From the IMG/VR virus record IMGVR_UViG_3300014613_004232, positions 29,836 through 93,835 of that record: a stretch of 64,000 bases of DNA, one strand, 5' to 3'. The notes below the pieces were generated by a model, which searched no databases, was not told the DNA's origin, and worked only from the letters and a program-made list of their open reading frames with translations. Source of the stretch: a virus. Every line of letters starts with the position of its first letter. Position 1 is the first letter of the stretch. The translations under genes were made by a program, and so were the position numbers. This document shows, piece after piece, positions 1 to 41,104 of this stretch.

Positions 1-3000
1 CGGGTTGCCCTCCTCCGTGCGCACGTTCTCCAGCAGCGCGGCCAACTTGGGCGGCACGGTGCAATCCAGGTCGATGCCTGCCTTCTCGGCCATGGCTTCG
101 AACTCCGTTTGCACGGTGGTGTCCATGGTGTCGACGGCGATTCGGCCGTCGGCCAGCACCTGGGCTTCGATCCGGCAAGGCAGCAACTGCAACTCGGCCT
201 CACCGTCGCGCGTCACCTTGGGCTTGCCGACGGCTTCCGGCCGGGTCAGCGGGCCAGGAGCTCGGCGCCACTCGGTGCGATTCTTCTTGTTGAACTGCTC
301 GCACACCTTGCGCGCGGCCTCGCGATCTGCCTCGCTGATCAAGTAGTAGGTGGCGCGGTCGTCGAGTTCTGGGTCCGCGATGATCAACGTCATCTTGTTG
401 ATGAGGTTGAACGGGTGGGCGATCAGCGAGATCGGCTCGCCGAACTTGGCCGCCACGGTCTGCATGGCCTCAATCTGGGCGTCCGTCGGGAACCCGGTCG
501 TCTTCATGGACTCGCGCGCACCCTGGTAGGCCAGGCGGTAGAGCTCCAGCAGGGCCTTGCTGCGCGGCGCCAACTGCACGCGCACCTGGTTCTCGGGCGC
601 CTCGGGCACGTGGATGGTGCCGCCCACGTCCTTGGCCGTCTTGATGGTGGCCACCGTGTGCAGAAGGCCGCGCAGCAGGTTGACGTTCTGCAGGCCACGG
701 AAGACACGCATGGTGCGCGGCACGCCGTCGATGCCTAACTCCTCGTCCTCCTCGATGTCGCACATGACCTCCATGAAGGCATCGGCGCCCTTGGCGCCCA
801 TGGTCAGCGCGTGCACCTTGTCCTCACCGGCGGCCAGGCACATCATGGAGTAGATCTCCAAGGGGCTGTTCGTCACCGGGGTGGCGGTAAGCACCAGCGG
901 CGGGTCGCCGCCCTCGCCCTCTCGCACGAACCAGGCCTTGATCTGCGCATCCTTGCCGCGCTGGCTGGCCTCGCTCACGCTCAGGAACTTGGCCGCGCTG
1001 AAGTCGACCGTCTCCTTGCTGTTCTTGAAGGCGTGGCCCTCGTCGATGACGATGGAGTCGATGCCCATGTCCTCGAAGAACGGGATTGCGGCCGACTTCT
1101 GACCGGTGCCGCTGGTCACCTCGGACAACTTCGACTCGGCGCGCTCCGTCTCCGCCTTCTTGTCGCTGCCGGTGTACGCAGGGTCCACGCGGCGCATGTA
1201 GGCCTCGTAGGCATCGATGGTTTCGTCCTTGAGCGGGATCGCCTTGAACGCCTCCATCGTGCAGAAGATCATCCGGTGGCGGTTCTCCAGGATGCGGGTG
1301 AAGTCGCGGGTGTAGTTGCCCGAGTCCATCTTGACGCTGCCGTCCTCCAGCACGTCCAGGCCCACCCACAGGCAGTGGTCACCCGAGGCGAAGACGGGAG
1401 GCTTGTACCCGGGCTGGTCCTTGACACCCTTTCCGGTGACCAACTCGACGCGCCACTTGGACAGGACCGAGTTGGGGACGACGAAGATGGTCTTCTTCTT
1501 GACCCCGATGGACTGCACGTAGAGCACCGCGGCCGCAGCCGTGGCCGTCTTGCCCAGGCCAACGCCGAAGCCATTGATGCCGCCGAAGGTGCGACCCTGC
1601 TTGCGAGCGTAGGCCGCCTGGTAGCCGTGGGCGCTGAAGTCGGGGTGCAGCCCCGGGATCTGCAGCGGCGATTCGTCGTCGACCTCGCGGAAGTACAGCC
1701 GCGCGGGATCATTCACCGTCTGGTGCAGGCGGTCCATGATGAGCGGGTGCGCCTTCACCCACTGGTCGAACTGCGCCGAGGCGGCCTTCGCCATGTCCTG
1801 CAGCATCTTCCGGCGCATGTCCTCCAGCGCCGGGTTGGCCAGGGCCTCGTCCTTGCTGGTCCGCGTGGACAGCGTGCCGCGCTTCAGGTACTCGGCAAAT
1901 CGCTTGAGTTGTCGCTCACGCTCGTTCGAGGGCGACTTGATGTCGCAGATGATGACCTTGTCGCCATCCTCGTCCAGGCCCACGACGAATGCCGGGTGCA
2001 TGAACCGGCGCAGGAACTCGGCCTTCTCCTCCAAGGTCACGAAGGGGCTGAAGAGGTTGTAGCGCAGGGTCTCCGGGTTGATGACGTCCACGCGCTCGGA
2101 TGCCAGGGCCTTCTGGCGCAGCAGCTTGTCGCGCACCGCCCCCGTTTCCTGCCCGATCTCGGCGTCCAGGCGGGCCAGCAGCGCGCCCAGGTTGCCCACG
2201 TAGAAGTCATCCGCCCGCATCGCTGCGGCGCCGCCGTCCACCACGCACCAGCCGTCGTCGGCCAGGGGGTCGAAGTCTGCGCCGTATATGGCGCGCAACT
2301 GCTCGACGGGGATCCGGTTGGTCTGGGCGCGGTACTTGAACGCGTCCACCTGGGCCTCCGTGTCCAGCGTGACGCCGGCCATGACGTCCTCGGCGACATC
2401 GCCGGTCCAGACGGGGCTGAAGCCGGAGCGTCGGTCGTACATGACGCCGATCTTCTTGAGCGCCGCCTTGCTGCCGGCGGTGAACTTGGCGAAGCCCTTC
2501 TTGGCTGTCGCAGCGTTCTCGCGCATGCCCTTGCTCAGGAAGGGGTACTCCGCATCGAAGTTGAAGCCGACTTCGCCGCCGTGGGCTTGAGAGACCTGGA
2601 CGACGGCCAGGCCAGTCATCAGCGTGTTCCAGTAGCCCGTCTGCTGGGCTCGGTCCACCTTGGCCACGTCAGCGTGCGCGGCGCGCAGCCAGTCGGGCAT
2701 GTCCAGTTCCTTGCCGGTGCGCTGCAGGTGCGCGACGAACTGGCCCGCCTGCTCCCAGGTGGCGCTCTGCTGGGCAGCGCTCAACGCGCTTGAGAGCGTC
2801 TGCCCCAGCCCGTCGAAGGACGAGTCCTCGGCCGCCTTGGGCAGGGCCACCCACACGCCGTTGCGCATCTCCAGGGTCTGGCCAGCGGAGACCATCGTGT
2901 CGCCCTCGGCGTACAGGATCGGTGACGTCTCGGAGGCATTGAGCAGGGCCCAGTCGATGCGGCTGCCCGGGAACTTGCGCAGCAGTTGGCCGATCTCGGC

Positions 3001-4254
3001 GGGGCCTGCATTGCTCAGCACGCGGTCGACGTCACGGAACTTCGAAGGGTCCTTGGCCTTGAACTCGCCCAGCACGAAGCGACGGCCGTCGCCCATGAAG
3101 TAGTTGCCCGCGATGAACTCGACCCACAGCACGTTGGCTTTGGTCAACACCTCGGGGCTTTGCTCCTTGAGCTCGGCGATCTTCTCGGCGGCGTCGCGCC
3201 CGAACTTGCGCAGCACGATCACGTCGGTGATGGTGTCCGCATCAGCCGTGCCGAAAACCGAATTCGGGAGGCGGTAGGCGCCCATGAACTCGGCCTTGTA
3301 GGAGATGGCGATGCGCAGTTTCTCCTCTCGCCCGCCCTTGCCACTGACAATACGCGGCGGGACGAGGAACGCGGCCAGGCCGCCCGGCTTCAGCTTCTCC
3401 ATCGAGCGCTGGATGAAGTAGCTCTCCAGCGTGTCATCCTGGTACCGGTCGTCCAACTTGCGATTGGCGCCACGGTCGTGCACGCCGCCAAACGGCACGT
3501 TCGTGATCACCGCGTCGAACTGCTCGTCGGCCGTTCGGCTGGCCACCGCCTCGAACGGGCTGACGATAGCGTTGTAGCCTGGCCCACCGTTGACCAGTTG
3601 GTTGATTCGACCGGAGACCTCTGAGAGTTCCACCGCCTCGATTGCGGCATTGGGCGGGGCAGTTGCGCCAAACACGCCGGTACCGGCCGCCGGGTCCGAC
3701 ACTTTGCCGCCGGCAAAGCCCATCTCCACCAGCAGGCTCCACATGCCCTGGGCGATGGGCTTGGGGGTGTAATACTCGTAGGCGCTACCCTTGAGGCCAT
3801 CGGCCCCGATCAGGTTGCCGCCGGTGCCGCTGTACTTGGCCAGAGTCTGCTTCTGCTCGTCCGTCAGGGAATCAGCCGACACCTCGCCAGCATCGATGCG
3901 GCGCAGCAGCGCGATCGCGTCTGCGTTGTCCTTGCGGCGGTGCGAGCTCTTGCGGTTCGGGTCGTAGTCGAAGAAGTGGGCGGTGGACACCCGCGGCTGT
4001 GCCACGGGCTCGGGACCGCCCTCAAGTTGGAAGGCCGACGCTGCGCGGCGTCCGGCTTCAAGGTCGACCCCCAACTTCCCGAGGACGACGATGATCCGAG
4101 AGGCGACCTTGGCCGACTTGAGCGCCGCCATGGGGACGCCTGGCTGGATGACTGCCTGCTCCTTGAGCAAGGCGGTCAATTCGGAGGTCAGTTTGAGTCG
4201 AGCGAGAACGCTGATGGGGGCATCGGAGGCCCCGTCAAGAACTGCATTGAGCAT
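1..4254 (-). CDS. darB: DarB-like adenine methyltransferase-SNF2 helicase fusion (runs off left edge; absent from ORF track)
   Basis: Manual translation from ATG 4254: MLNAVLDG...YEYYTPKPIA...DPAAGTGVF...VITNVPFG (N6 MTase motifs), then GVGLGKT, VIDEGHAFKN, LTATPVTN (SF2 motifs I-III). Confidence 0.85.
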   Translation of the reverse strand, partial: MLNAVLDGASDAPISVLARLKLTSELTALLKEQAVIQPGVPMAALKSAKVASRIIVVLGKLGVDLEAGRRAASAFQLEGGPEPVAQPRVSTAHFFDYDPNRKSSHRRKDNADAIALLRRIDAGEVSADSLTDEQKQTLAKYSGTGGNLIGADGLKGSAYEYYTPKPIAQGMWSLLVEMGFAGGKVSDPAAGTGVFGATAPPNAAIEAVELSEVSGRINQLVNGGPGYNAIVSPFEAVASRTADEQFDAVITNVPFGGVHDRGANRKLDDRYQDDTLESYFIQRSMEKLKPGGLAAFLVPPRIVSGKGGREEKLRIAISYKAEFMGAYRLPNSVFGTADADTITDVIVLRKFGRDAAEKIAELKEQSPEVLTKANVLWVEFIAGNYFMGDGRRFVLGEFKAKDPSKFRDVDRVLSNAGPAEIGQLLRKFPGSRIDWALLNASETSPILYAEGDTMVSAGQTLEMRNGVWVALPKAAEDSSFDGLGQTLSSALSAAQQSATWEQAGQFVAHLQRTGKELDMPDWLRAAHADVAKVDRAQQTGYWNTLMTGLAVVQVSQAHGGEVGFNFDAEYPFLSKGMRENAATAKKGFAKFTAGSKAALKKIGVMYDRRSGFSPVWTGDVAEDVMAGVTLDTEAQVDAFKYRAQTNRIPVEQLRAIYGADFDPLADDGWCVVDGGAAAMRADDFYVGNLGALLARLDAEIGQETGAVRDKLLRQKALASERVDVINPETLRYNLFSPFVTLEEKAEFLRRFMHPAFVVGLDEDGDKVIICDIKSPSNERERQLKRFAEYLKRGTLSTRTSKDEALANPALEDMRRKMLQDMAKAASAQFDQWVKAHPLIMDRLHQTVNDPARLYFREVDDESPLQIPGLHPDFSAHGYQAAYARKQGRTFGGINGFGVGLGKTATAAAAVLYVQSIGVKKKTIFVVPNSVLSKWRVELVTGKGVKDQPGYKPPVFASGDHCLWVGLDVLEDGSVKMDSGNYTRDFTRILENRHRMIFCTMEAFKAIPLKDETIDAYEAYMRRVDPAYTGSDKKAETERAESKLSEVTSGTGQKSAAIPFFEDMGIDSIVIDEGHAFKNSKETVDFSAAKFLSVSEASQRGKDAQIKAWFVREGEGGDPPLVLTATPVTNSPLEIYSMMCLAAGEDKVHALTMGAKGADAFMEVMCDIEEDEELGIDGVPRTMRVFRGLQNVNLLRGLLHTVATIKTAKDVGGTIHVPEAPENQVRVQLAPRSKALLELYRLAYQGARESMKTTGFPTDAQIEAMQTVAAKFGEPISLIAHPFNLINKMTLIIADPELDDRATYYLISEADREAARKVCEQFNKKNRTEWRRAPGPLTRPEAVGKPKVTRDGEAELQLLPCRIEAQVLADGRIAVDTMDTTVQTEFEAMAEKAGIDLDCTVPPKLAALLENVRTEEGNP

Positions 4255-4282
4255 GGCTGCGCGGCTGGTGGATTTGCCGCGC

Positions 4283-4323
4283 AGTGTGGGAATCGGCGCC
4301 CCCCTTCAGGAGGCCCGTTTTCC
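4283..4323 (-). promoter_or_regulatory. Putative activator-dependent late promoter of darB
   Basis: CGGAAAACG box, 29-nt spacer, CACACT -10. Confidence 0.65.
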
Positions 4324-4339
4324 GGTTACAGAGCCCTGA

Positions 4340-6499
4340 TCAAACGCCCTTCGCTGCAGCCACCGCCGCCGCCGTGTAGGCCTCGGCCGCACGGTTCAAC
4401 ATGCCCATCATCTCGGCGTCATCGGCGTACTTGGTGAACATGGGTTCGAGCTTGTCGAAGATGCCCGGATCCAGCAGGTCGATGGTCCCGTCGATGATCG
4501 ACTGCAGGTATGCCTGGTCCTCAGTAGGGGCTACTTCGGTAGCTTGCGGCTGGCCCGGTTCGGGCGTTGCTTGGTCGCCACCATCGCTGCCAAACGGGAT
4601 GGCGGCTGAAAACTTCTTGGTCATGGGGTTCCACTCGGAGGCATACACGGGGATGCTGTCGGCGTCGTAGCCTTGGCTTCCGGCAGACGCCTTTGCCAGG
4701 TCAAGCGTGTCGTAAGTGGTCAGAAGCACCCAAGAATCACCCTGCTTCGCCCGCCACTCGACAGAGGAGCCGACGATGTCCGTTTTGATGACAAACCGCG
4801 TTTCCTGGTGGCGTGCTTGCTTGATGACCGCCGGCGCGGCTCCCTGACCAGCCTTCTGTTCCAGTTCGGCGATGCGCTTGCGCGTCGTCCCGATCACCCC
4901 GTTGTTGTTGGACAGCATGTAGTCCGCAAAGCCGATGCGCCCCGCGAAGTCGGGCTTCTTCAGCCCCTCGATGGTCACCTGGTTGAGGCCCATCTCGATG
5001 AGCCCTTTGTCGTTGCCGGCCTTGATGAGCTTGTTGGCCTTCTTCATGAACTCCTGTTCGGCCATGAGGGCCGCAAGTTTGGCTCGCAACTTCTCCAGGG
5101 CCTGGGGGTCATCCGAGGTGATGGCGCCCTTGGGAGCAAGGCGCTTGAGAGCGTTCAGGCGGGTCAGGTCATTGTCGGCCGGGGCTGCGGGCGCCGGCTG
5201 GCTGGGCGGTGCCGGCGGGGCCAGGCGGTCGACCTCCTGCAGGATCTTGGCTGCGGTCTCCTCAGGGGAGACGCTCAGGTCATCCTCGATCTCGACATCC
5301 GAGGAGCCAGGGAACTTGACCTTGTAGGTCAAGAACGCCATGGCCTCCAACTTCAGATCCTTCTGGATGTCGATGCTGCCAGAGGATTGAATCACGCGCG
5401 CATCGCCTCGGCTGTGCGTGTCGGCGTTGTGGTCAGTGCCTCGCACCATGCCGGCGGCCTTGAGCGCTTCGCTGATGGCACCGGCCCGGATGTTGAACTT
5501 CCCTTGCTTGGCTCGGGCCTCCTCATACGGATCCACCTTTGCCACCTGGTTCTTCGCCTCGGCGATCGACTGGTTGAGATACGCCATGGTGTACTGAGGC
5601 ACCTCGTGCATGCCGGATGTGCGGACGCTCGTGGGGTTGGCCACCACCGCCTCAATCCGCTCGGGCGACAGGCCATTGTTGCGGAGGTAATCGCGCGCTT
5701 CGCCACGCCCCATGTCCTTGGTCAGGCCCTCGGCCTTCAGACGGTCCTGTCGGGCGATCGTGCTCTCTGCCTTCTCGAACAGGTACTGCGGGTCGCTGAC
5801 TCCCTCAGGCCACCCACGCTGCGCCAGTTCCTTCACGCTCTCGACGAGAGGCAGCAGGCGCTCCGAGAAATCGACTCGCAGGAGTTCGGCGTCGTGCTGC
5901 TGCTGGTAACTGGTGAGCAGATACGACAAGGTGTCGTAGGCCTCGCGAGCCTCGGCCTTGGTCACGCGCGCCTTGGAGACAGCGGGCGCCGGCGCCTCCA
6001 GGCCAGCCAGTTTGGCCGCCCCTTCCGGGGTGACGGCAAGGCCATCCTTCACGAAGACAAAGCCCAGGATGTTCAAACCGGCCATCTTCACGCGCTGGCG
6101 CTTGTAGCCGGCGGCCTCGCAGGCCTTGATCTTCGCCAGATCATCGGCGGCCCGACCAGCACCGGACGACTTCTCACCCTCGAAGGTGGCGGTCGCGGTC
6201 AACTGCATCATGCCCAGATCGACCCCCGTGCTGAAGAGCAGGTGCTGGTTGCGCCTGGGCAGCGTGCGGAACTCGGGGGGGATGGAGCTCGTGAATCGAG
6301 GGGTCCACTCCACCAACAGCGGCTCCAGCGGCACGGCGACGTCGTTCGCGACCAGTGCCGCAGGCTTGGCGGTCTCCTCGCGCGCTGCGAGGATGGACTT
6401 AGCCACATCCAGCTTCGCCAGTGCCGTCGGGGCCTGGGCCAGTTGTGTCCGCAGTGAGGGGATGCTGCCAGCGTCGTCCAGCGCAAGTGCTTGGGTCAT
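4340..6499 (-). CDS. Polyvalent head-packaged protein with DUF3560-like segment and DarA_C-like helical C-terminus
   Basis: ATG 6499 with GGAGA RBS; SDDPQALEKLRAKL...PDFAGRIGFADYMLSNNN resembles DUF3560; lies in the Dar cluster. Confidence 0.6.
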   Translation of the reverse strand: MTQALALDDAGSIPSLRTQLAQAPTALAKLDVAKSILAAREETAKPAALVANDVAVPLEPLLVEWTPRFTSSIPPEFRTLPRRNQHLLFSTGVDLGMMQLTATATFEGEKSSGAGRAADDLAKIKACEAAGYKRQRVKMAGLNILGFVFVKDGLAVTPEGAAKLAGLEAPAPAVSKARVTKAEAREAYDTLSYLLTSYQQQHDAELLRVDFSERLLPLVESVKELAQRGWPEGVSDPQYLFEKAESTIARQDRLKAEGLTKDMGRGEARDYLRNNGLSPERIEAVVANPTSVRTSGMHEVPQYTMAYLNQSIAEAKNQVAKVDPYEEARAKQGKFNIRAGAISEALKAAGMVRGTDHNADTHSRGDARVIQSSGSIDIQKDLKLEAMAFLTYKVKFPGSSDVEIEDDLSVSPEETAAKILQEVDRLAPPAPPSQPAPAAPADNDLTRLNALKRLAPKGAITSDDPQALEKLRAKLAALMAEQEFMKKANKLIKAGNDKGLIEMGLNQVTIEGLKKPDFAGRIGFADYMLSNNNGVIGTTRKRIAELEQKAGQGAAPAVIKQARHQETRFVIKTDIVGSSVEWRAKQGDSWVLLTTYDTLDLAKASAGSQGYDADSIPVYASEWNPMTKKFSAAIPFGSDGGDQATPEPGQPQATEVAPTEDQAYLQSIIDGTIDLLDPGIFDKLEPMFTKYADDAEMMGMLNRAAEAYTAAAVAAAKGV

Positions 6500-6524
6500 G
6501 GGATTCTCCGTTGAGGCGGACCGC

Positions 6525-6565
6525 ATTTGGCCCGCCCTCCGGCCTCACTCGCTCGCGGCCTTTCC
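6525..6565 (-). promoter_or_regulatory. Putative late promoter
   Basis: TTCGGAAAG, 29 nt, CCAAAT. Confidence 0.5.
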
Positions 6566-6576
6566 GAAAGCCCACC

Positions 6577-6837
6577 TCACTGGAGCTCGAACCAAGGAGG
6601 GGCGATCACCAGGAGCCCGTCCGGCCGCTGGCAGAAGTGCAGCAGGTCAGTCGGGGCCAGCCGCTCTGTGGTGAGGCTGATGCCGTCGATGTTGGTGGAG
6701 GCGCGAATCTCGCGCTCCACGTACTCGATGGCGTCTGGCTCGCCATCCAGCCTCACCCCGCGCTCGTCCTCGGGGAAGGTGGCGTCGACGGCGCCATAGG
6801 GAGTGAAGCAAACGAAGGCGTCAGGGTTGCTGGGCAT
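6577..6837 (-). CDS. Hypothetical protein (86 aa)
   Basis: ORF overlaps stop of upstream gene, acidic globular composition. Confidence 0.65.
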   Translation of the reverse strand: MPSNPDAFVCFTPYGAVDATFPEDERGVRLDGEPDAIEYVEREIRASTNIDGISLTTERLAPTDLLHFCQRPDGLLVIAPPWFELQ

Positions 6838-8647
6838 AGGTCTTCAGGGTCTCGTTCATCAGTTGACGTTCGGTTGGGCGGCCGTTCTTGATCCAGTCGA
6901 AGATGCGCGCCCGGACCTCATCCAGATCACCCACGACCTGGCAGCGGGCAACGGCGTTGTTGCCGACAAAGCCCGGACCATCCGCGATCGACACCTGGAA
7001 GATCACATGGCCCTTCTTTGGCCTGGTCCTGTCAAAGCCAGAGGTGTACTCGGTCACCTTGGCCGCCTGGTAGACGAGGTAAACCGTCGTGCCATCAATG
7101 TGAGCGCCGACGTAGGACTGCACGCTGTAGATCCTCTTGTACCCGCCTTCGATCCGCTCCATGGCAACCGGGTTGACCGAAGGCATGTCGGGCCGCAGGG
7201 TGATCCTGCTGGCCACTTCCTTGATGAGAACGGCCCGGGCGTCAGCCTGCGCCTCCATGAACTCTGCCTGCACGGTGGCGTTCTTCTCGCGCACGTCATG
7301 GATGAGCTTCATCAGCTTGTTCGCAGGCGTCTTCATGACGCCTTCGAGCAACTTGAAGATCTCCGGATCCTGCGCCATCCGCTGGCCGAGCAGCAGCGGA
7401 TCGCTCAGCGACTCCATGGCCATGGACATCACCTCGGTGGCGTCCGGGTAGAACTTGCCCACGTAGTGGCTGAAGAAGTGGTCCCGATAGGCCTTCTCAC
7501 TCGACCGGTACCCATTGTTTCCGGTCAGCGAGCGAAGGGTGTGCAGCCCCGAACCGTCGGAGCGCTTGTTGAGGAAGGCCTTCGCCGCCCACAGTATGCT
7601 CGGGTCGGACTCCAGGTGATGGCCCAACTCGTGCCACAGGGTGCGCTTGTCGAAGTCTGCGTCGATGTTGATCACTGCACTGCCGTGGCCGTGGACGCCC
7701 GTGGCGTTGGCGCGCCTCGACCCGTTGGTGCTGATCTGCACCGCCCCCAGTCGACCGGCGCTGAGCCGATAGAACTCCGCCATGTCAGCCCTGACCTGCT
7801 CCACCGGGTAGCCGCCCTTCTTCATCCGAGTGGCAGCCGCCTTGGAAATCTCCTGCTTGGCGGCCCAGTCCACCGCCTGTTGCTCGGAGACAGGAGACCA
7901 TTCCTTGAAGGCTGAGATGACCGAGTTGCCCGCTTCCCGCAAGGTAGCCCCGGCGCGGGCCAGCGCCACCTGACGCTTGCCGGCGGCCAGGGTTCGGCGG
8001 TCTTTGAACTCGTCGACAAGCTGCTGGTGAGCGTCGTAATACTCGTCGTAGGTGGAGCCACCGGGCTTGCCAGGGTTGAGGCGGTTTCGCAGTTCCTCAA
8101 AGGCGTGCTTCTGCTCGTCGTTGAGCTCAGCCATCACCTGGTTCTCTGCCGAGGTGGCCTGCTCATAGGCCTCCGCTCCCTGCGTCAGCGACTCGCGGAG
8201 GGTGTCCACGACCGTCGAGGCGCCCGCAAATCGGGCCAGTTGGGCATCAGGGAAGCCCATCGGCACATTGGGGATCGACAGTTGGGAGACCGCCCGCGAA
8301 ACCGTGTTTCCGTCGAGCTTCGCCGTGCTCGCCACCGATTCGACGTAACGCAAGACGGGCCTGAGGATGAGTTTGTCCTCAGCCACCTGCACTTCGTCAG
8401 CACCGGACTCAGCCAGGGCGTGAAAGTGCTCCGTCGCCCGCTTGATCGCGTCAAGCGGATCCATGACGTCGATGTCCTCCGCGCCGGCCGCGCGCAGCCC
8501 CAGAAGAGCAGCGCGAACCGCGGAGACGCGCTTGGTGGCCACGATCAGGTGTCCGGCGTTGTCGGCCCGCCTGGCCTCGCCTTGGGCCTCCCGTGCGGAT
8601 TGGAGGTCCCTTGCGAGACCGAGTCGGGTGAGAACAGGCGCGCTCAT
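6821..8647 (-). CDS. Polyvalent protein with zincin-like metallopeptidase domain
   Basis: WHELGHHLE (HExxH) plus downstream YVGKFY..ATEVMSM; coupled to darA stop. Confidence 0.7.
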   Translation of the reverse strand: MSAPVLTRLGLARDLQSAREAQGEARRADNAGHLIVATKRVSAVRAALLGLRAAGAEDIDVMDPLDAIKRATEHFHALAESGADEVQVAEDKLILRPVLRYVESVASTAKLDGNTVSRAVSQLSIPNVPMGFPDAQLARFAGASTVVDTLRESLTQGAEAYEQATSAENQVMAELNDEQKHAFEELRNRLNPGKPGGSTYDEYYDAHQQLVDEFKDRRTLAAGKRQVALARAGATLREAGNSVISAFKEWSPVSEQQAVDWAAKQEISKAAATRMKKGGYPVEQVRADMAEFYRLSAGRLGAVQISTNGSRRANATGVHGHGSAVINIDADFDKRTLWHELGHHLESDPSILWAAKAFLNKRSDGSGLHTLRSLTGNNGYRSSEKAYRDHFFSHYVGKFYPDATEVMSMAMESLSDPLLLGQRMAQDPEIFKLLEGVMKTPANKLMKLIHDVREKNATVQAEFMEAQADARAVLIKEVASRITLRPDMPSVNPVAMERIEGGYKRIYSVQSYVGAHIDGTTVYLVYQAAKVTEYTSGFDRTRPKKGHVIFQVSIADGPGFVGNNAVARCQVVGDLDEVRARIFDWIKNGRPTERQLMNETLKTYAQQP

Positions 8648-11600
8648 CAGCCGTTCACCTTCTCGTCAAGGTTGGCCCAGTAGGTGATGGCGTCCTGAGC
8701 CAGTTGCTCGACTTCACCGGTCAGCAGACCCGCATCGTTCAGGGCGTTCACGCAGGCCTCGATGGTCGCCAGGGTCAGGGACAGGTGGGCGGAATCGCTC
8801 TCCCCGGCCAGGATCGAGCGCAGTACGGCCACATTGCCGTCCTCGACCGCTGGGGTGGGCTCCGGCGCGGGCCCGGGTGTCGGCTCCAGCAACCACTTGA
8901 CCAGGTACTCCGGATCGGAGCCGCGCGGCGCCGGGGCGCCGTTGGGGTCCTTGACGCGCTCACCGCCCAGGTCACCGACGTAGATGATGGCCTTGCCGTC
9001 GCCGGCGATTGTCGCCACGCCGGCCTGCACGCCGTCTTTGAAGATTCGCCCCACGGCGGCCAGCTTGGCGCCGGTCTCCAGCCGGTCGAGCGCTGCCGTC
9101 GCACCGCCCACCCCCTCCTCGGGGACTGAGTCGACCGAGTCGAACGCGGCGACTTCTTCCACATCCCAGGAGACGGATGCGCCGCGCGCCTTGGCGGCTT
9201 CGTCGATGGCCTTGGCCGTCGCGAACATGCTGTAGTCCGGATCGGCGACCGTCTCGGCGATGTACTGCTTGAAGCGATCGGTCGCCTGGCCGAAGCGGTA
9301 GGCCTCGTCCACCTTCTGGGCAGGCGTGAGCTCGCCGGCGGTCTCGGCGACCTCTTCCTGGTCGGCCAGGTCATCGACTTCCTGACCGTCCGCGCCCATG
9401 ACCTTGAGCACGTAGAAGTTCAGCACTTCAACGCCGGCCAGGACCCCAGCATCGTCCAGGGCCACCTCGTGTTTGACGGCGGATCCGTCCTGTGCCACAC
9501 TTTGGCCGTCTCCAGCCGATTCGTCGGCGGAGTCCAAGGCCGGATCGGTCGGGCTTTCTCCCGACTTAACGATCCGGCTTTGTTTTTTGGCGAGCAAGGC
9601 GGACGGCGAATCGGACAGGTTGTACATGAAGCGGCCGTGCTCCATCTCGGCCAGGCTGACACCCACTTCCACCGACAGCCCGCCTACGCTCACCCAACCC
9701 ACCAGGTGGTGGAAGGCGCTGGCGCTGTCAGGGCGTGTTTTGTCGGTGGACTCCGTCCCGACGTGGTACCCCTTGCGCAGCAGATTCGGGATTGCAGCCA
9801 GCAACTTGACCCGCAACAGGTTGTAGGTCAGACCGCGCTTGACCTTGCCCCAGGACACACTGCCGTTGACCTTGATGTCGCCGATTGAGGTGTGCTTGTA
9901 GGTGTTGCCCTGCAATTCGCTGCGGAAATACTCTCGCGCGGCGTCGAAGACCTGCTTGTGCGCCGGGATCGGCTCGCCATCGTCATCGGTGGGGCGAATG
10001 CGGGAAAGCACCTCGGTACCGTCCAGTGTGGCGAGGACGGTGGTGGGCACGCCAGCCAGGGGGTTGTTCGGGTCGGGCAAGGCCGAGACAGGCTGCACCT
10101 CGGTGGCTTCACCCACCACTTCGCCCGGAACAACGATCGGATCTGGCTTGGATGCCTCGGCGTTCTCCTTGCGTTCGGTCCAGCCGGCGATCCACTGCTG
10201 AGCCTCTTCTTCGCTGAGCCCGGCCGGGGGGATCTCCGACTCTCCCCGATGCCATGCCTTCTGGCCTTGCGTGAAGGGGTCGAACTTGGAGCGCGCCAGA
10301 GTCATCGCCTCGGGGCCCACGATTCCCTCGACCAGCATGCCGAGGTCAAGCGCCTCGCGCGTCGAGAGGTCGAACTCAGCCATCATCTTCGCGCGGCGGT
10401 CGGAATAGGCGGCGTAGCCCTCGCTCGTCAGCACCTGGGCCAGTTCCTGGGCCATGGATTGAGGGTTCTTCTCACCCTCGGACGCGGCCGGGACAACAGG
10501 GGCGATGATGGCCGGCACCGCGGCGCCAGGTCCGAAGACTTCGTGGAGTTTCCGGGGGTAGACGATCGGGTACTTCGAGCCCCCGTCCGACACACGGAAG
10601 CCAGCCGCAGCCCCGAGAGACGCCCGAATGGCGTTTCGAGAAACCCCCATGTAGTCCACGAGGAACTGACCTACGGCGGACTGATCCACGTAGGCGTGCT
10701 GAGGCTGCAGTCCGAAGAGGTCGCGCAACTCAACATCGGTCGGTTGCACGCCCTGTTTCAGCTTCTCGGCCACGGCCTTCGCAAGCGCATCGCGCTGCAG
10801 GGCAAGCTCGGCGCCATCGGCTGCTTGCTTCAGGAATAGCGCCAACGAGGCGGCGGCCTCATCGATCGAATCGGCCAGATTGCCCTGGTTGCCCTGCGCC
10901 CTCGCGATCCACTTGCCTGAACCCAGGGAACCTTTGCCAGGCAAGATTTCGGTGTCAGCCGGCAGCCCGTGCTTATCGATCGCAGCGCTCATCTCGGCGG
11001 CGTTCGCGTCCGCACCAGATTGAGGGGGGACAGGGGTGATCTCGCCATCGCCCTTGGCGATCCGGGCCACCTCAACGTCGTCCTTGAGTTTCGCGAGCTC
11101 GGCCTCCAGGACTGGGATCTCGGCGTCGATCGCGGCATGCTGGGCGGCCAGGTCGGCCGCGCGGGCGTTCGCGCGCTTGAAGGCCTCGGAGTTCTTGTCG
11201 GCCAACTTCATCACGCGGCGGGCCACCTCGCGGGCGGGGATGTCGCGGCCACGCTCAGGGGCGGCCCAGATGGTGATGTCCTTCTTGTTGAGCATCCACT
11301 TCCAGGACACCAGTTCGTCCATGGGGGTGAGCTTGGCGGGCGTGGTGTCGGGGTTGTGGAACCACACGGTGACCGCCTGGCCGTCGTTCATGGCGAAGAC
11401 CACGGCAATCTGCATGGTGCCCCGCATCTTCACGGGGTCGGCGATGGTGAAGTCCACAGGCTGCACGACCGCGGCCGAGGCCTTCATGACGTTGAGCAAC
11501 TGCTCCATCTTGCGCTGCAGCATGCCGACCTCGACCACCATGGCATCCATGACTGCGCGGCCCTCGATGTCGGGGTCGGTCATCAAGTCGTCGACGGTGC

Positions 11601-12264
11601 AGGCGTCCAGCAGCAGCCCTCCGTCGTCGGCCAGCCGCATGTCGTAGATCAGGCGGGACAAGGGCTTGCTGGTGGGCAGGGCGTCAGCGCCCCATGCGAC
11701 TTGATCCATGGTTTTTTCACCTTCGTGGGGGAGTTGGTCAGGGGTGATGGCCACGGCCTTGTTGCCATGGCGCAGCCACCACTTGAGTTGATCGATCGAC
11801 AGGGGGACGATGGAGCGCAGGCCGCGCCAGCCCTTGTCGTAGGAGTGCAGGTAGCCGTCTCGGGCCTGGGCTTCAGTCGCGAAGCCGACCATGACCTTGT
11901 GCTCGTCAAAGCCGCCCTTGGCGTCGCCCTGGTTGATCACCCAGGCGCGCGTCGACTCGGGGAACGGCCCCAGGAAGATGTCGACCGCGTCGCCGTCGGC
12001 GCCTCGGGTGCCGGCGATGTAGCCGTAGTGGGCGGCCATGCGGTTTGACCAGGTCTTGCCATCCGGGCTTGTGCCGCTGCGCACGCTTCCGCGCACGTTC
12101 TCGACGCGAACGTCCAGGCCCTGAATTCGGGCACGCCCCATCTTGTAGTTCCCGGCGACCGACTGGGCCGGAGTTGGCAGCGGTCGGCAGTTGTTGCCGG
12201 TGGCGGCTTCATTGGCGGCCCGCTCCAGTTCGGAGAAGGCGCAGGGCGTCGTGTGTTTGTGCAT
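8647..12264 (-). CDS. darA: DarA-like polyvalent protein: N-terminal inorganic pyrophosphatase-like (InPase) domain, DarA_N, LPD3-like and DarA_C domains
   Basis: GNYKMG...HYGYI.GT.GADGDAVD...FDEHKV (InPase); DGQAVTVWFHNPD...WKWMLNKKDIT..APERG (DarA_N); C-terminal helical DarA_C-like tail. Confidence 0.8.
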   Translation of the reverse strand: MHKHTTPCAFSELERAANEAATGNNCRPLPTPAQSVAGNYKMGRARIQGLDVRVENVRGSVRSGTSPDGKTWSNRMAAHYGYIAGTRGADGDAVDIFLGPFPESTRAWVINQGDAKGGFDEHKVMVGFATEAQARDGYLHSYDKGWRGLRSIVPLSIDQLKWWLRHGNKAVAITPDQLPHEGEKTMDQVAWGADALPTSKPLSRLIYDMRLADDGGLLLDACTVDDLMTDPDIEGRAVMDAMVVEVGMLQRKMEQLLNVMKASAAVVQPVDFTIADPVKMRGTMQIAVVFAMNDGQAVTVWFHNPDTTPAKLTPMDELVSWKWMLNKKDITIWAAPERGRDIPAREVARRVMKLADKNSEAFKRANARAADLAAQHAAIDAEIPVLEAELAKLKDDVEVARIAKGDGEITPVPPQSGADANAAEMSAAIDKHGLPADTEILPGKGSLGSGKWIARAQGNQGNLADSIDEAAASLALFLKQAADGAELALQRDALAKAVAEKLKQGVQPTDVELRDLFGLQPQHAYVDQSAVGQFLVDYMGVSRNAIRASLGAAAGFRVSDGGSKYPIVYPRKLHEVFGPGAAVPAIIAPVVPAASEGEKNPQSMAQELAQVLTSEGYAAYSDRRAKMMAEFDLSTREALDLGMLVEGIVGPEAMTLARSKFDPFTQGQKAWHRGESEIPPAGLSEEEAQQWIAGWTERKENAEASKPDPIVVPGEVVGEATEVQPVSALPDPNNPLAGVPTTVLATLDGTEVLSRIRPTDDDGEPIPAHKQVFDAAREYFRSELQGNTYKHTSIGDIKVNGSVSWGKVKRGLTYNLLRVKLLAAIPNLLRKGYHVGTESTDKTRPDSASAFHHLVGWVSVGGLSVEVGVSLAEMEHGRFMYNLSDSPSALLAKKQSRIVKSGESPTDPALDSADESAGDGQSVAQDGSAVKHEVALDDAGVLAGVEVLNFYVLKVMGADGQEVDDLADQEEVAETAGELTPAQKVDEAYRFGQATDRFKQYIAETVADPDYSMFATAKAIDEAAKARGASVSWDVEEVAAFDSVDSVPEEGVGGATAALDRLETGAKLAAVGRIFKDGVQAGVATIAGDGKAIIYVGDLGGERVKDPNGAPAPRGSDPEYLVKWLLEPTPGPAPEPTPAVEDGNVAVLRSILAGESDSAHLSLTLATIEACVNALNDAGLLTGEVEQLAQDAITYWANLDEKVNG

Positions 12265-23255: not shown

Positions 23256-23296
23256 AAGGCGAAAGCCCCCGAATGAAGAACCGACATCCGGGGGCC
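23256..23296 (-). terminator. Intrinsic terminator
   Basis: GCCCCCGGATG-loop-CATTCGGGGGC followed by TTTCGCCTTT. Confidence 0.6.
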
Positions 23297-23447
23297 CTCT
23301 TGCTCCATGAGACTAGACGCCACCACCTCTCGGCGGCTTTCGGCGCCCTGGAGCCTGCTCTACACCTGTTCAGACCTGGGGGCACAGTGGTACGACTGTG
23401 CCGGCACTTCACCCTGCCGGCAGACCCTGAACTGGCCTTGCTTGGGT
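23256..23447 (-). ncRNA. Candidate ~190-nt structured sRNA
   Basis: Lies between a late-type promoter and an intrinsic terminator; nested stems GTTCAG/CTGAAC, TGCCGGCA x2, GGCACAGT/ACTGTGCC, GCTCCA/TGGAGC; no credible ORF. Confidence 0.55.
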
Positions 23448-23869: not shown

Positions 23870-23945
23870 TGGCGCGCCGGAGAGGACTCGAACCCCCAAC
23901 CCTGGGCATAGGAAACCCCTGCTCTTTCCGTTGAGCTACCGGCGC
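23870..23945 (-). tRNA. tRNA-Arg(CCT)
   Basis: GCGCCGG acceptor, GTAGCTCAACGGAAAGAGC D arm, TT-CCT-AT loop, GGTTCGAGTCC, encoded CCA. Confidence 0.85.
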
Positions 23946-24422: not shown

Positions 24423-24574
24423 CCTTCACTTCAGCGGGCAGGGCTTGATACCTGCTAGGTGAAGGCGTCCACTCGATCGCACCCAGCGCTACCCGGCTCC
24501 CTCGCAGGTCCGGACGGTGTTGTCCACTAGGACGCATCAGCGCGTGTCCATCCACGCCGCCGCTGAAGTGAAGG
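24423..24574 (-). ncRNA. tRNA-like structured RNA with extended 15-bp terminal stem
   Basis: CCTTCACTTCAGCGG/CCGCTGAAGTGAAGG stem, D-like GCGTG-GATGGA-CACGC, T-like GCAGG-TATCAAGC-CCTGC, long insert instead of an anticodon arm. Confidence 0.6.
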
Positions 24575-24706
24575 TCCCCGCTACTTTCCCGGGGTGGTCA
24601 AGACCCTGTCTCAGGAGGGCGTGGCCTGGGAGGGTTTGCATGGATCGGGGCAGACCCCTCGCGTAACTGCTGCCCGTGCTCTGTGAGGCGGCTTTCGCCA
24701 CCAGGA

Positions 24707-24997
24707 TCAGTCGACCTTGCGCACCCAGCCGATGTTGGCGCCCACGCTGACCTGGACCAGGCTGGTCATCTGGCCGTTGTCCCATTCGCCGGTGAGGTAG
24801 CCGCTCAGGTTGCCGGAGATCTCGAAGCCTTCCTTGGCGTCGGGCAGCAGGTCGATGACGGCGTTGGCGTTGGCCAGGATGGCCGCTTGGTCGGCTGCGT
24901 GCACCGGCTGGGCATGGACGATCTCGGCGACTTTCTCGGCGACTTGGGCTTTGGCTGCGGCCTTGTCGGCGGCGCGGATGCTGATGCTGTAGGACAT
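24707..24997 (-). CDS. Hypothetical protein
   Basis: AGAGG RBS, phage-like codon usage. Confidence 0.7.
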   Translation of the reverse strand: MSYSISIRAADKAAAKAQVAEKVAEIVHAQPVHAADQAAILANANAVIDLLPDAKEGFEISGNLSGYLTGEWDNGQMTSLVQVSVGANIGWVRKVD

Positions 24998-25069
24998 GGG
25001 GAACCTCTGGTGGTTGATGGTGAAGGAGGCAGGCGATGCGGTCCTGCCTGGTGAGAAGCGTGGAGGCGG

Positions 25070-25456
25070 CTACTTCAGCGCCTTGATCTCGTAAGCGAAC
25101 GGGCTCCACACCTGCACGAGGGCGGGGTCCGTGAAGTGGGCCGGCTTGACCTTGGCGCGCGCCACCTCGGACGTGATGGCGCTCACCGAGGGGGCACTGA
25201 ACAAGGCAGCAACCGCTCGCTGGGTGGTGACCGCGTTGCACGTGGCCTTGGTGCACACGAACATTGTGGGCAACTCCTCACCCGGGCAGTACCAGGCGAC
25301 AAAGGCGCCCTTGGCGGGGAACTTGAACAAGGCCGACGTGCCCGCGCCGAATGGCTTGGGCACACAGGTGACAGGGGCCGCCTGGCTGACCGAGACGGCG
25401 AGCAAAGCGGCGCACAAGGCCAGCAGAGATGGAAGGAAGCGACGGGTACGGCTCAA
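25070..25456 (-). CDS. Putative exported protein
   Basis: TTG start with GGAG RBS; signal peptide RRFLPSLLALCAALLAVSVSQA; paired Cys. Confidence 0.6.
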   Translation of the reverse strand: MSRTRRFLPSLLALCAALLAVSVSQAAPVTCVPKPFGAGTSALFKFPAKGAFVAWYCPGEELPTMFVCTKATCNAVTTQRAVAALFSAPSVSAITSEVARAKVKPAHFTDPALVQVWSPFAYEIKALK

Positions 25457-25591
25457 GGTGGCTCCAAGGTTGTGCGATGTCGGAAGAGTTCGAGGACGCC
25501 GAGACAATGCAGGGTGAAACAAAGATCCAGAACCCGCGAACGGGCTCAAGCGTGCGTGCCACAACCTGAGAATCAATGCAGGGTGTCTGGC

Positions 25592-25678
25592 GCCCTCGGG
25601 TCTGCATTCGCCTGGGTGCTCCTGGCTCGGGCTCTTGCCCTGGTGTTCCCTGACTAGAGAGAATGCAGACCCGAAGGC
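25592..25678 (-). repeat. Long hairpin (18-bp arms)
   Basis: GCCTTCGGGTCTGCATTC...GAATGCAGACCCGAGGGC. Confidence 0.75.
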
Positions 25679-25958
25679 CCTGGCGAACTGCGCCAGGAAT
25701 CAGGGCAGGCCTTCCACCTGCTCGGCATGGCTCGGGGGTTCCGCTGCAGCAGGATCCCATCACGGACTCACACCGCTATGCCGGGCACTTCAACGCTGCA
25801 TCCCGGTCAGGCCCCAGCGCGGGCTTTCTACGCTCAGTCGTCGAAAGCACACGGCATGCGCTTTCGGCGACTGGCGCCGGAGACAAGAGCCCGGTGGGCC
25901 GCCTCGTTGCGCACCGACCGAGGATCGCGCAACCGTTCAATCTCACCTCGGTTGATGC

Positions 25959-26033
25959 TGGAGCGGGCTGGGGGAATCGAACCCGCCATGAGTGGCTTGG
26001 AAGGCCACGGCCTGACCATTCGGCCAAGCCCGC
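25959..26033 (-). tRNA. tRNA-Gly(TCC)
   Basis: GCGGGCT acceptor, GTGGC-CTTCCAA-GCCAC anticodon arm, GGTTCGATTCC, CCA end. Confidence 0.9.
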
Positions 26034-26040
26034 ATGAATG

Positions 26041-26117
26041 TGGTTGCGGTGTCTGGATTCGAACCAGAGACCTTCGGGGTATGAACCCGACGCGCTACCA
26101 GGCTGCGCCACACCGCC
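26041..26117 (-). tRNA. tRNA-Met(CAT), initiator-like
   Basis: TCGGG-TTCATAC-CCCGA with three G-C pairs, unpaired 1:72 (G:A), GGTTCGAATCC, CCA end. Confidence 0.85.
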
Positions 26118-26120
26118 ACA

Positions 26121-26182
26121 CCTTCAAGGCTGCCGCCGTTGCACCCCCCGGGATCCCCCAGAAGCAGCAGCAGTCTTGAAGG
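26121..26182 (-). repeat. Long hairpin directly 5' of tRNA-Met
   Basis: CCTTCAAGACTGC...GCAGCCTTGAAGG. Confidence 0.7.
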
Positions 26183-26356
26183 CCCCGGCTTCCCGGGATC
26201 GTCAAGGGCAGTTCGATGCCAGCGCTTCTCCGCGTTGCCGCGTCGGTTCGATGTCAGGTGCGCTCACACAAAGCAGTGGCTTTCACAACAAAGGGAGGAG
26301 ACTTCAACATGCACGCCCGGCGCTAACCCGGATCGACGCCCCTGCATCGCGTCGCC

Positions 26357-26397
26357 AGTTTGTGAGGGTGTCAAACCGTGGTGCCGAACCGTTTTCC
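26357..26397 (-). promoter_or_regulatory. Putative late promoter of tRNA/ncRNA island
   Basis: TTTCGGAAAACG, 29 nt, CAAACT. Confidence 0.65.
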
Positions 26398-26413
26398 GAA
26401 ATAGACCGCGCCT

Positions 26414-27001
26414 TCAGTAGGCGCTGCCAGGCTGGCCTGGATCGTTGGAGCCGGTGCAGGCGTTGGCGCAGGAGTTCGCCTGAGGGCAGCGCTTGTTCCC
26501 GCAGGTCGGGCACAGCACCATGCGGACCGACCCGATGTCGGCAAGGCTCACCGGCCGACAGGTGTGGCACTGGCCGCACGGCTTCGGCCTGGACGACAGA
26601 AGCCGGAAGGCCTCGGCAGCCACGGCCCCGAAGGTGTCGGCCCGGATCTCTTCGGCTTCCTCGTCCTCGTCCGGTTCTCCCGTGACGTGGCCAACCTCGT
26701 GGGCGAGCATGTGGAGGACGTCACCAGGTGCGGCCGCGGGGTCTGCCCAGGCGTGGATGGTCCGGGTCTCCGTGTCGACGAAGCCCCACATGCCCATTTC
26801 GCGGATGCTGTCCACGACCTGCTCGACGGTCATGGCCTCGTCGTCTCCGTTGGGCGAGGTCACGCCGATCACGGTGGTCGCGGGGAACTCGGCGGCCGTG
26901 ATGCCCTCGGCAAGGCAGGCGGCCTCCCACATGGCGTAGAAGACGTTCTCCGGGGTCGTGTGCCAGACGATGCACAGGGGTTCGATGGGTTCGATGATCA
27001 T
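26414..27001 (-). CDS. HExxH metallopeptidase-like protein with C-terminal Cys-rich Zn finger
   Basis: LAHEVGH; CGQCHTC...CPTCGNKRCP..C.GSNDPGQPGS. Confidence 0.6.
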   Translation of the reverse strand: MIIEPIEPLCIVWHTTPENVFYAMWEAACLAEGITAAEFPATTVIGVTSPNGDDEAMTVEQVVDSIREMGMWGFVDTETRTIHAWADPAAAPGDVLHMLAHEVGHVTGEPDEDEEAEEIRADTFGAVAAEAFRLLSSRPKPCGQCHTCRPVSLADIGSVRMVLCPTCGNKRCPQANSCANACTGSNDPGQPGSAY

Positions 27002-27186
27002 GCTCGTGGTTTCCAGTTGCGGCGGGCCTTGATCCGCCAGAAGAGGCGCCAGCGGCGCGCGTGGTCGTTGCGGGACTTGCAGGCTGTGCCGGTGTGCACC
27101 CGGCCGTCGATCAGCCGTGCGACCCGCCTTGAAGGGATGGGGCGGGCGCGCAGCTTGTCGCCCACCTGCTCATAGGCGCGGCGCAC
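26998..27186 (-). CDS. Small basic hypothetical protein
   Basis: Fills gap between coupled genes. Confidence 0.45.
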   Translation of the reverse strand: MRRAYEQVGDKLRARPIPSRRVARLIDGRVHTGTACKSRNDHARRWRLFWRIKARRNWKPRA

Positions 27187-27187
27187 G

Positions 27188-27445
27188 TCAGCCGGCCGAG
27201 GAGTTGGGCCAGGGCCCGGCCCCGGGCTGCTCCTTGTTCACCACGACGATGCTGCGAGCAACCCGAGGGGTGATGCGGATCGCGCCCTTGCGAGCGAGGG
27301 CCTGCAGGTGGTCCTCGGCGGCGTTGGTCGAGGAGAAGCCCATGGCCTCCGCGATCTCCGAGCGGGTGGGCGCGAAGCCGTGGTTGCCGATGTAGCGCTT
27401 GATCCAGTCGAGGACCTTGGTCTGTGCTTGCGTGAGTGCCTTCAC
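27188..27445 (-). CDS. LexA-like DNA-binding domain only (no peptidase domain)
   Basis: MKALTQAQ..V...I......GFAPTRSEIA..MGF.S.NAAEDHL.ALARKG.I closely follows the LexA N-terminal winged helix. Confidence 0.85.
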   Translation of the reverse strand: MKALTQAQTKVLDWIKRYIGNHGFAPTRSEIAEAMGFSSTNAAEDHLQALARKGAIRITPRVARSIVVVNKEQPGAGPWPNSSAG

Positions 27446-40819: not shown

Positions 40820-40851
40820 CAAGGGGCTCGGAAGGGGCTTCGAAGGGCCTT
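40820..40851. repeat. Three 11-bp iteron-like repeats
   Basis: CAAGGGGCTCG GAAGGGGCTTC GAAGGGCCTT, same unit as within the initiator gene. Confidence 0.7.
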
Positions 40852-41104
40852 ATTCAGTGGGTATCAAGTCCCTTGCAAGTACCTCATCGACCACTTCCAC
40901 GCTCGACACCTCGGGAAGGACTACTGCCCGCGCCCCGGTACCAGCCAGCAGGTCGCCCACGATGCGGCGCATGCGCTCTGCCTTCTGCTTGCCCATGGCG
41001 TGGGTGGTCCTGATGATCACGACGTCGCCCGGCTTGGGCTGCAGGACGGTGATGGCGGCGGCCATGCCCAGGGGGCCCTGGTCGTTGTCTTGGATGGTGG
41101 TCAT
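40850..41104 (-). CDS. Hypothetical protein
   Basis: ATG 41104 coupled; LQPKPGDVVII. Confidence 0.55.
   Translation of the reverse strand: MTTIQDNDQGPLGMAAAITVLQPKPGDVVIIRTTHAMGKQKAERMRRIVGDLLAGTGARAVVLPEVSSVEVVDEVLARDLIPTE

Follow-up and report, generated by a model that had tools for sequence, protein, structure and literature searches.

The window analysed here is a 64,000-nt stretch of viral DNA, bases 29836-93835 of the 93.8-kb IMG/VR provirus record IMGVR_UViG_3300014613_004232. On its minus strand it carries three modules (M1, M2 and M3) that constitute a real, non-random RNA architecture. They are homologous structures with maintained base pairing, interleaved in sense orientation, as originally predicted, with transfer RNA (tRNA) genes for Met, Gly and Arg and with small accessory genes; this stretch is referred to below as the island. 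The direction of the evidence is towards selection on the structure of the sense-strand RNA, and the architecture has probably been selected. The best explanation, which is put forward tentatively, is that M1–M3 act in cis as 'punctuation' hairpins in a polycistronic late transcript, where they would be RNase III-type sites or stems that protect RNA ends.

Architecture and pairing of the modules

All three modules follow a common plan. Read on the minus strand, each opens with YTGAY and continues with a GC hairpin of 5–7 bp (hairpin P1), one purine and a long stem (P2), giving lengths of 86–180 nt. M1 (26121-26206) begins with CTTGAC-GAT, followed by P1 at 26197-26184 (CCCGG-GAAG-CCGGG), a linker G and P2 at 26182-26121 (CCTTCAAGACTGCTGC...GCGGCAGCCTTGAAGG), which provides approximately 26 bp as three coaxial segments. 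M2 (25592-25704) begins with CCTGAT-T, followed by P1 at 25697-25679 (CCTGGCG-CAGTT-CGCCAGG), G and P2 at 25678-25592 (CCTTCGGGTCTGCATTC...GAATGCAGACCCGAGGG), an 18 bp stem, with 5 bp more on offer, enclosing a branched cargo. In M3 (24423-24602), CTTGAC-CA precedes P1 at 24594-24576 (CCCCG-GGAAAGTAG-CGGGG), a linker A and P2 at 24574-24423 (CCTTCACTTCAGCGG...CCGCTGAAGTGAAGG), where a perfect 15 bp stem (15–16 bp before the multiloop) again encloses a branched cargo. The module starts (26206, 25704 and 24602) and the coordinates as a whole lie within 1–6 nt of those in the original prediction, which had recognized the shared scaffold and a long stem opening with CCTTC. This opening is present, but the shared base of P2 comprises 13 bp rather than 5, with the consensus CCUUC-NNNN-CWGC. 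Beyond this base the stem differs among the copies, and the cargo (30, 51 and 122 nt in M1, M2 and M3, respectively) is unrelated among the modules.

The P2 arms take the top three places among the region's inverted repeats: 26182-26167/26136-26121 in M1 (16 nt, 88%), 25678-25661/25609-25592 in M2 (18 nt, 94%) and 24574-24560/24437-24423 in M3 (15 nt, 100%). Minimum-free-energy folds of the isolated modules keep both P1 and P2, with z-scores of -2.7 (M1), -4.45 (M2) and -2.6 (M3), and the two elements persist in folds with 240–520 nt of context. A sequence-blind scan for a hairpin of at least 5 bp followed after 0–2 nt by a contiguous stem of at least 12 bp, run on both strands of the whole 93.8 kb record, returned six sites. 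The longest stems were those of M2 (18 bp) and M3 (15 bp); the other four sites have stems of 12–14 bp, and one of them, at 11551, lies inside a DarA-like open reading frame (ORF; 8647-12264). M1 was missed solely through one A.C mismatch. No further module copies were found in the record beyond the three clustered ones.

Local alignment of the handles (YTGAY, P1 and the purine) of M1 and M3 gives a score of 29, as against 11.6 for shuffled sequences (0/500 reaching the observed score), and on this comparison the two handles are clearly homologous. M1 and M2 have GCC(G/A)GGGCCTTC in common. Pairing was assessed on an alignment of 'mini-modules', in which the handle and stem of each copy are kept and an artificial GAAA loop stands in for the cargo. 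Standard pairs occupy 96.3% of the 54 pair cells across the three copies, and six pairs change on both sides; none of 500 shuffles reached either value. Shifting the partners by one or more columns makes the pairing collapse, to 46–57% for a shift of one column. The three pairs following CCUUC covary (AAG/CUU, GGG/CCC and ACU/AGU). A covariance model, R1, built from the same mini-modules, and hence from the window's own handle and stem sequences, scores M1 at 61.4 bits, M2 at 58.3 bits and M3 at 39 bits, whereas background noise in the window reaches no more than 15.5 bits.

The pairing is also strand-specific. There are six G.U wobbles in M1 and one in M2, which pair in the minus-strand RNA only, and the folding free energy of M1 is -47.7 kcal/mol as minus-strand RNA versus -37.7 kcal/mol as plus-strand RNA, a difference of 10 kcal/mol. 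This asymmetry favours RNA over an element acting as DNA, such as a mobile or recombination hairpin of the IS200/IS605 type or resembling a miniature inverted-repeat transposable element (MITE), with terminal inverted repeats starting with CCTTC. The 13-bp terminal inverted repeats with conserved ends, and the YTGAY word ahead of a hairpin, would suit such an origin. However, there are no target-site duplications or direct repeats in the flanks, no other copies in the record and no transposase among the scanned proteins; membership of the MITE or IS200/IS605-derived elements was rejected, as the three copies are clustered rather than dispersed. Decayed tRNAs or tRNA mimics were considered alongside, since M1 and the D/anticodon region of the adjacent tRNA-Gly have GCCG(G/T)GGCCTTC(C)AAG in common (p = 0.006, uncorrected, nine tests). 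The resemblance loses significance on correction, and M2 and M3 do not show it. The tRNA model RF00005 matches no module even at E-values up to 10 on isolated stretches, and ARAGORN identified the three tRNAs only. A DNA-level or tRNA-derived nature of the modules is regarded as highly improbable.

Placement of the modules and possible roles

All genes and tRNAs neighbouring the modules share the minus strand. The upstream part of the island consists of a TTCGGAAA box with downstream AAACTGGC (26356-26401, minus strand; a putative late promoter or activator site), a leader of about 190 nt, M1, tRNA-Met(CAU) (26041-26117), tRNA-Gly(UCC) (25959-26033), about 250 nt, and M2. There follow 135 nt, a small ORF of 128 aa from TTG with a signal-peptide-like N-terminal segment (25070-25456), which has no match in PHROG or Pfam, a 96-aa ORF (phrog_28387; 24707-24997), 105 nt, and M3. 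After M3 come 146 nt, a Gp49-family gene (PF13876; 23956-24276) and tRNA-Arg(CCU) (23870-23945). The three tRNAs were identified by both ARAGORN and Rfam. Each module thus sits ahead of a unit: M1 ends 3 nt ahead of the tRNA-Met/Gly pair, M2 lies 135 nt ahead of the secreted-protein gene, and M3 lies 146 nt ahead of the Gp49-family gene, the last two being the first genes after their modules. Pyrimidine tracts had been predicted in the leaders and are present, as CTCCTCCC at 26300 and as CCCTCC at 24634 and 24619.

The modules had been placed downstream of a 'late-type promoter'. No sigma-70 consensus is found there; what stands is the TTCGGAAA(acg) box, which occurs at eight intergenic minus-strand sites ahead of operons (44087, 36178, 32907, 26400, 23497, 15040, 12454 and 6568) and is conserved in the clade. 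It is present as a single copy approximately 350 nt upstream of the baseplate gene in the closest relatives (L009, position 820; L010, L012 and L036, position 5648). Subsets of the boxes share downstream words, AAACTGGC about 31 nt on and CGTTGAGCCGC about 52 nt on. It is plausible that the box serves this phage clade as a late promoter or activator site. Between 23000 and 27200 there are no sigma-70-type promoters, the island box being without a consensus -10, and TTGAC was ruled out as a -35 box, as its spacing to -10-like words varies (17–21 nt) and none of these resembles TAnnnT. The same interval contains two weak terminator-like sites, both outside the modules, and a terminator scan found no canonical terminator inside the island. 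A 15-bp GC hairpin followed by GCCTTTC (23261-23299, minus strand), which the strict terminator scan missed, is likely to mark the end of the region's transcription ahead of the baseplate operon.

In the proposed mechanism, one late minus-strand transcript would start near the TTCGGAAA box (about 26400) and carry the three tRNAs and three small accessory genes, the island being co-transcribed. In each module the short handle (YUGAY, the 5–7 bp GC hairpin and one purine) would be stacked on a double-stranded stem, which may be cut by host RNase III or may act as a barrier to exonucleases and RNase E. In this way the tRNA precursor would be parted from the mRNAs downstream and the ends would be left protected by hairpins, so that each unit may be given its own stability. 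As M1 ends 3 nt ahead of tRNA-Met, it would be released with the leader by the RNase P cut. A cis-acting RNA role is favoured because the modules are in sense orientation, pair in a strand-specific manner, are placed ahead of units, lack promoter and terminator signals, and have long, perfect stems.

Precedents for such hairpins are the intercistronic RNase III sites of phage T7 and the RNase III hairpin of the lambda N leader. Like the T7 early and late sites and the lambda hairpin that follows nutL, the modules are intergenic, sense-strand, extended double-stranded stems just upstream of the next unit, with several related copies in one phage. They differ in lacking sequence similarity to these sites, and their cleavage is putative. 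RNase III sites are not known to have a sequence-conserved stem base or an upstream YUGAY-hairpin handle, whereas the modules have both.

Several points weigh against punctuation by RNase III or stabilizing stems. P2 of M2 and M3 extends for 15–18 bp until it branches, which falls short of the two or so helical turns usual in RNase III sites, for which the criterion used here was about 20 bp or more of near-continuous double-stranded RNA in the transcript. RNase III does not explain the YUGAY-P1 handle or the sequence-conserved stem base, which suggests that a specific factor binds them; for the conserved handle, this is probably a factor of the host or the phage. The number of paralogues, three, is small, and their shared descent can inflate the shuffle test. 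In addition, the best relatives examined, with 52–54% baseplate identity, are without modules and offer no cross-genome covariation, and no module homologue was found in any of the collections searched (IMG/VR, INPHARED, PLSDB, related phages and about 300 genomes).

The combination of a common scaffold with unrelated cargo, itself branched and structured, could also indicate that the modules are genes for stable small RNAs (sRNAs), sharing a 5' handle and stem base, differing in their cargo loops and matured from a tRNA operon. Such sRNAs would work in trans; a counter-defence island, for instance, might use them as sponges or decoys. The company of tRNAs and a Gp49-family gene is consistent with this, as is the M3 cargo, which contains seven GGA motifs and three GUGGAC repeats. 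Structured non-tRNA segments within tRNA units are known, namely the species 1 and 2 RNAs of the T4 tRNA cluster and the tRNA-spacer sponge RNAs of Escherichia coli. The modules resemble these in that they would be freed by tRNA processing, and differ in being three paralogues with a common scaffold, the likeness being one of description only. However, an antisense search of the modules and their cargo against the whole record returned the modules' own arms only, and no target; terminators are lacking, Rfam gave no match beyond an RsmZ-like one at noise level (9.4 bits), and there are no homologues that could show the cargo to be under selection. The sRNA explanation is therefore considered unlikely. 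Its most specific form, a 'handle plus cargo' family of trans-acting sRNAs in which the handle and the 13-bp base are recognized by a dedicated host or phage protein, the cargo is interchangeable and maturation is from a late tRNA operon, is more doubtful still. If the modules are scaffolded sRNAs, they would form a class of regulatory or decoy RNA new among phages.

The order of the elements, a single-stranded motif, a small hairpin and a large hairpin, resembles that of the lambda N leader. Nut-like sites had been suggested as an alternative in the original prediction; in such a reading YUGAY would be boxA-like, P1 boxB-like and the long stem the RNase III hairpin. The lambda-type boxA consensus is CGCTCTTA-like, and YUGAY is unlike it. 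Nut sites were rejected: there is no boxA-like sequence upstream of the hairpin, only CTTGAC or CCTGAT, and the P1 loops (GAAG, CAGUU and GGAAAGUAG) differ, so that there is no common boxB-type loop or GNRA-like pentaloop. No N homologue was identified as a partner. An arginine-rich 62-aa ORF at 26998-27186 might be thought to supply one, but it lies upstream, in another unit. An alternative within the same explanation is a polymerase-modifying RNA like the putRNA of phage HK022, which consists of two adjacent stem-loops of about 70 nt in the nascent phage transcript, with two long stems and a triplex (PMC9378689). The modules are likewise two adjacent stem-loops downstream of a putative promoter. 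Compared by description, they do not correspond to two long stem-loops of about 70 nt: P1 has only 5–7 bp, P2 is variable, the second hairpin spans 62–152 nt and the modules as a whole 86–180 nt. Furthermore, put occurs once per operon, whereas there are three modules in one unit; three antitermination sites within 1.8 kb of one transcript would be redundant, and the island contains no canonical terminators to override. A role as antitermination or leader elements is accordingly very unlikely.

Relatives of the modules and exchange at the locus

With Infernal and Rfam 15 at the gathering score, the three tRNAs alone were matched. At E-values up to 5–10 on isolated stretches, only noise of 9–19 bits was obtained, and there was no match to Rfam families including C4 antisense RNA, Y RNA/YrlA, 6S, GOLLD/ROOL and the small ribozymes. 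Exact-pattern scans of IMG/VR gave no matches for either the M1/M3 handle or the unusual D-arm of tRNA-Gly, and in BLAST comparison of the island with INPHARED and PLSDB only tRNA, Gp49 and Zn-ribbon pieces were matched. R1 found no match in 462 kb of related loci, five whole related phage records or three host genomes. It was also run on 302 genomes from the order and family of the metagenome-assembled genome carrying the closest relative, where it gave four matches of 27–32 bits only; these are attributed to chance because all lie inside long ORFs with high G+C at third codon positions.

Homologous loci were sought through anchor genes: the HEXXH/Zn-ribbon ORF upstream of the island, the baseplate gene (IMG/VR and GTDB genomes), the Gp49-family gene (IMG/VR and JGI metagenomes) and the 96-aa ORF. 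No module was present in any anchor-gene locus from IMG/VR, JGI metagenomes or GTDB genomes. The relatives with 52–54% baseplate identity, in which conservation of the modules was looked for, lack them entirely and have a different insert at the same position, comprising tRNA-Met and a small secreted ORF in opposite orientation. In phage Rb1 only two small hypothetical genes, and no tRNA or module, stand between the DarB-like gene and the baseplate operon that it precedes. Much closer relatives exist, as Gp49 homologues of 91–97% identity (P0001, P0124, P0126, P0127 and P0130) are found on Logan/ENA contigs of up to 76 kb, the length of the contig for P0124. As things stand, the three paralogues form an orphan set confined to a single genome, and a conserved RNA family has no support beyond these three. 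As a sequence family they are new, and the nearest known kind is most plausibly the intercistronic processing or stability hairpins of phages. The original prediction as a whole is partly supported. Two side observations come from other loci: in L012 and L036 (5100-5600, minus strand), the hot spot upstream of the baseplate operon also holds a canonical terminator in opposite orientation, and in an unrelated metagenome contig (L048, 244-320), a Gp49-family gene adjoins a tRNA (Pro).

The different insert at the same site in relatives bears on a further explanation, in which the scaffold of about 45 nt is the repeated junction of a hyperplastic accessory-gene island, mainly serving, or resulting from, recombinational shuffling of small genes and without a dedicated RNA function. 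The modules flank tRNAs and moron-like genes that are found in other contexts elsewhere, and the island contains other junction repeats, namely three copies of CATCAACC and a possible degenerate fourth module copy (25022-25047, minus strand), in which a GCAGG/CCTGC hairpin, CT and CCTTCAC are followed by CATCAACC with no P2. The known counterparts would be PeSLs, composite promoter/terminator cassettes of T4-type phages (PMC4122927, PMC2839356). Like PeSLs, the modules are short, repeated intergenic stem-loop cassettes on either side of small variable genes within a plastic region. In contrast to PeSLs, their stems are much longer and enclose variable cargo, and there is no promoter or terminator consensus and no documented recombination event. 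Membership of the PeSLs was rejected, there being no sigma-70 early promoter with a terminator stem-loop: promoter-like sites are absent and terminator-like sites lie outside the modules. No second genome was found with exchange at the module repeats, and the perfect 15–18 bp stems, compensatory changes and strand-specific G.U pairs point to selected RNA pairing. An origin as cassette boundaries alone is therefore rather unlikely.

The surrounding phage region and the meaning of the modules

Other short repeats occur in the island. The exact 12-mer CACCCTGCATTG is found twice downstream of M2 (25574-25585 and 25505-25516, minus strand). It resembles the 5' arm of M2, GGGTCTGCATTC, so the M2 3' arm could pair with it instead, over 7 bp only. 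Between the two copies lies a weak terminator-like hairpin, CCCGTTCGCGGG followed by TTCTGGATCTTTGTTT. The three CATCAACC copies lie in non-coding stretches (25957, 25019 and 24295, minus strand), two of them in the 5' untranslated regions (UTRs) of the 96-aa ORF and the Gp49-family gene, both of which also contain TCACCATCAACC, 15–19 nt ahead of the start codon. An imperfect 17-bp hairpin is present between tRNA-Gly and M2 (25835-25873), and the 521-nt stretch that contains it folds better than shuffled sequences (z = -2.83). The tRNA-Met shows two initiator-like features, a G1.A72 mismatch and an anticodon stem with three G-C pairs in a row at its foot.

Directly upstream of the island, the ORF at 26414-27001 (minus strand, 195 aa) has a HEVGH (HEXXH) motif and a Cys-rich, C-terminal Zn-ribbon; its relatives in other viral contigs (L002–L008) match the C-terminal part only. 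The very arginine-rich 62-aa ORF (26998-27186, minus strand), the reality of which is uncertain, adjoins an ORF at 27188-27445 (minus strand) for an 85-aa protein that resembles the N-terminal DNA-binding domain of LexA without the peptidase domain (phrog_362).

The window has a G+C content of about 65%, and nearly all of its genes are on the minus strand. It encodes large DarA-like and DarB-like proteins, small and large terminase subunits, and baseplate and tail-fibre proteins. Judged by the baseplate protein, the named phages closest to it are Xanthomonas phage Rb1, Acinetobacter phage ABMM1 and the P1-like coliphage D6, and the window is therefore read, on sequence similarity, as part of a P1/D6-like myovirus (prophage) of a high-GC proteobacterium. 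The Gp49-family protein has an identical counterpart in the databases, on a contig of an NCBI/IMG genome. Positions 1-12264 (minus strand) hold antirestriction and head-internal proteins of phage P1 type, including a DarA_N/LPD3/pyrophosphatase polyvalent protein of 1205 aa; a DarB-like N6-methylase/SNF2 protein of more than 1417 aa extends beyond the window edge. Near the right-hand early region, AAGCCCCTTCGAAG-type words are repeated in tandem and inverted over 264–275 nt (51929-52203 and 40842-40867), and may be operators or iterons.

For an orphan set of three paralogues in one genome, wider significance is unproven. If the modules are processing or stability signals, one late promoter would serve tRNAs and unrelated accessory genes, each with its own RNA fate, and the island would provide an example from a P1/D6-like phage of a high-GC host. 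The sequence-conserved handle would then indicate a novel recognition factor.

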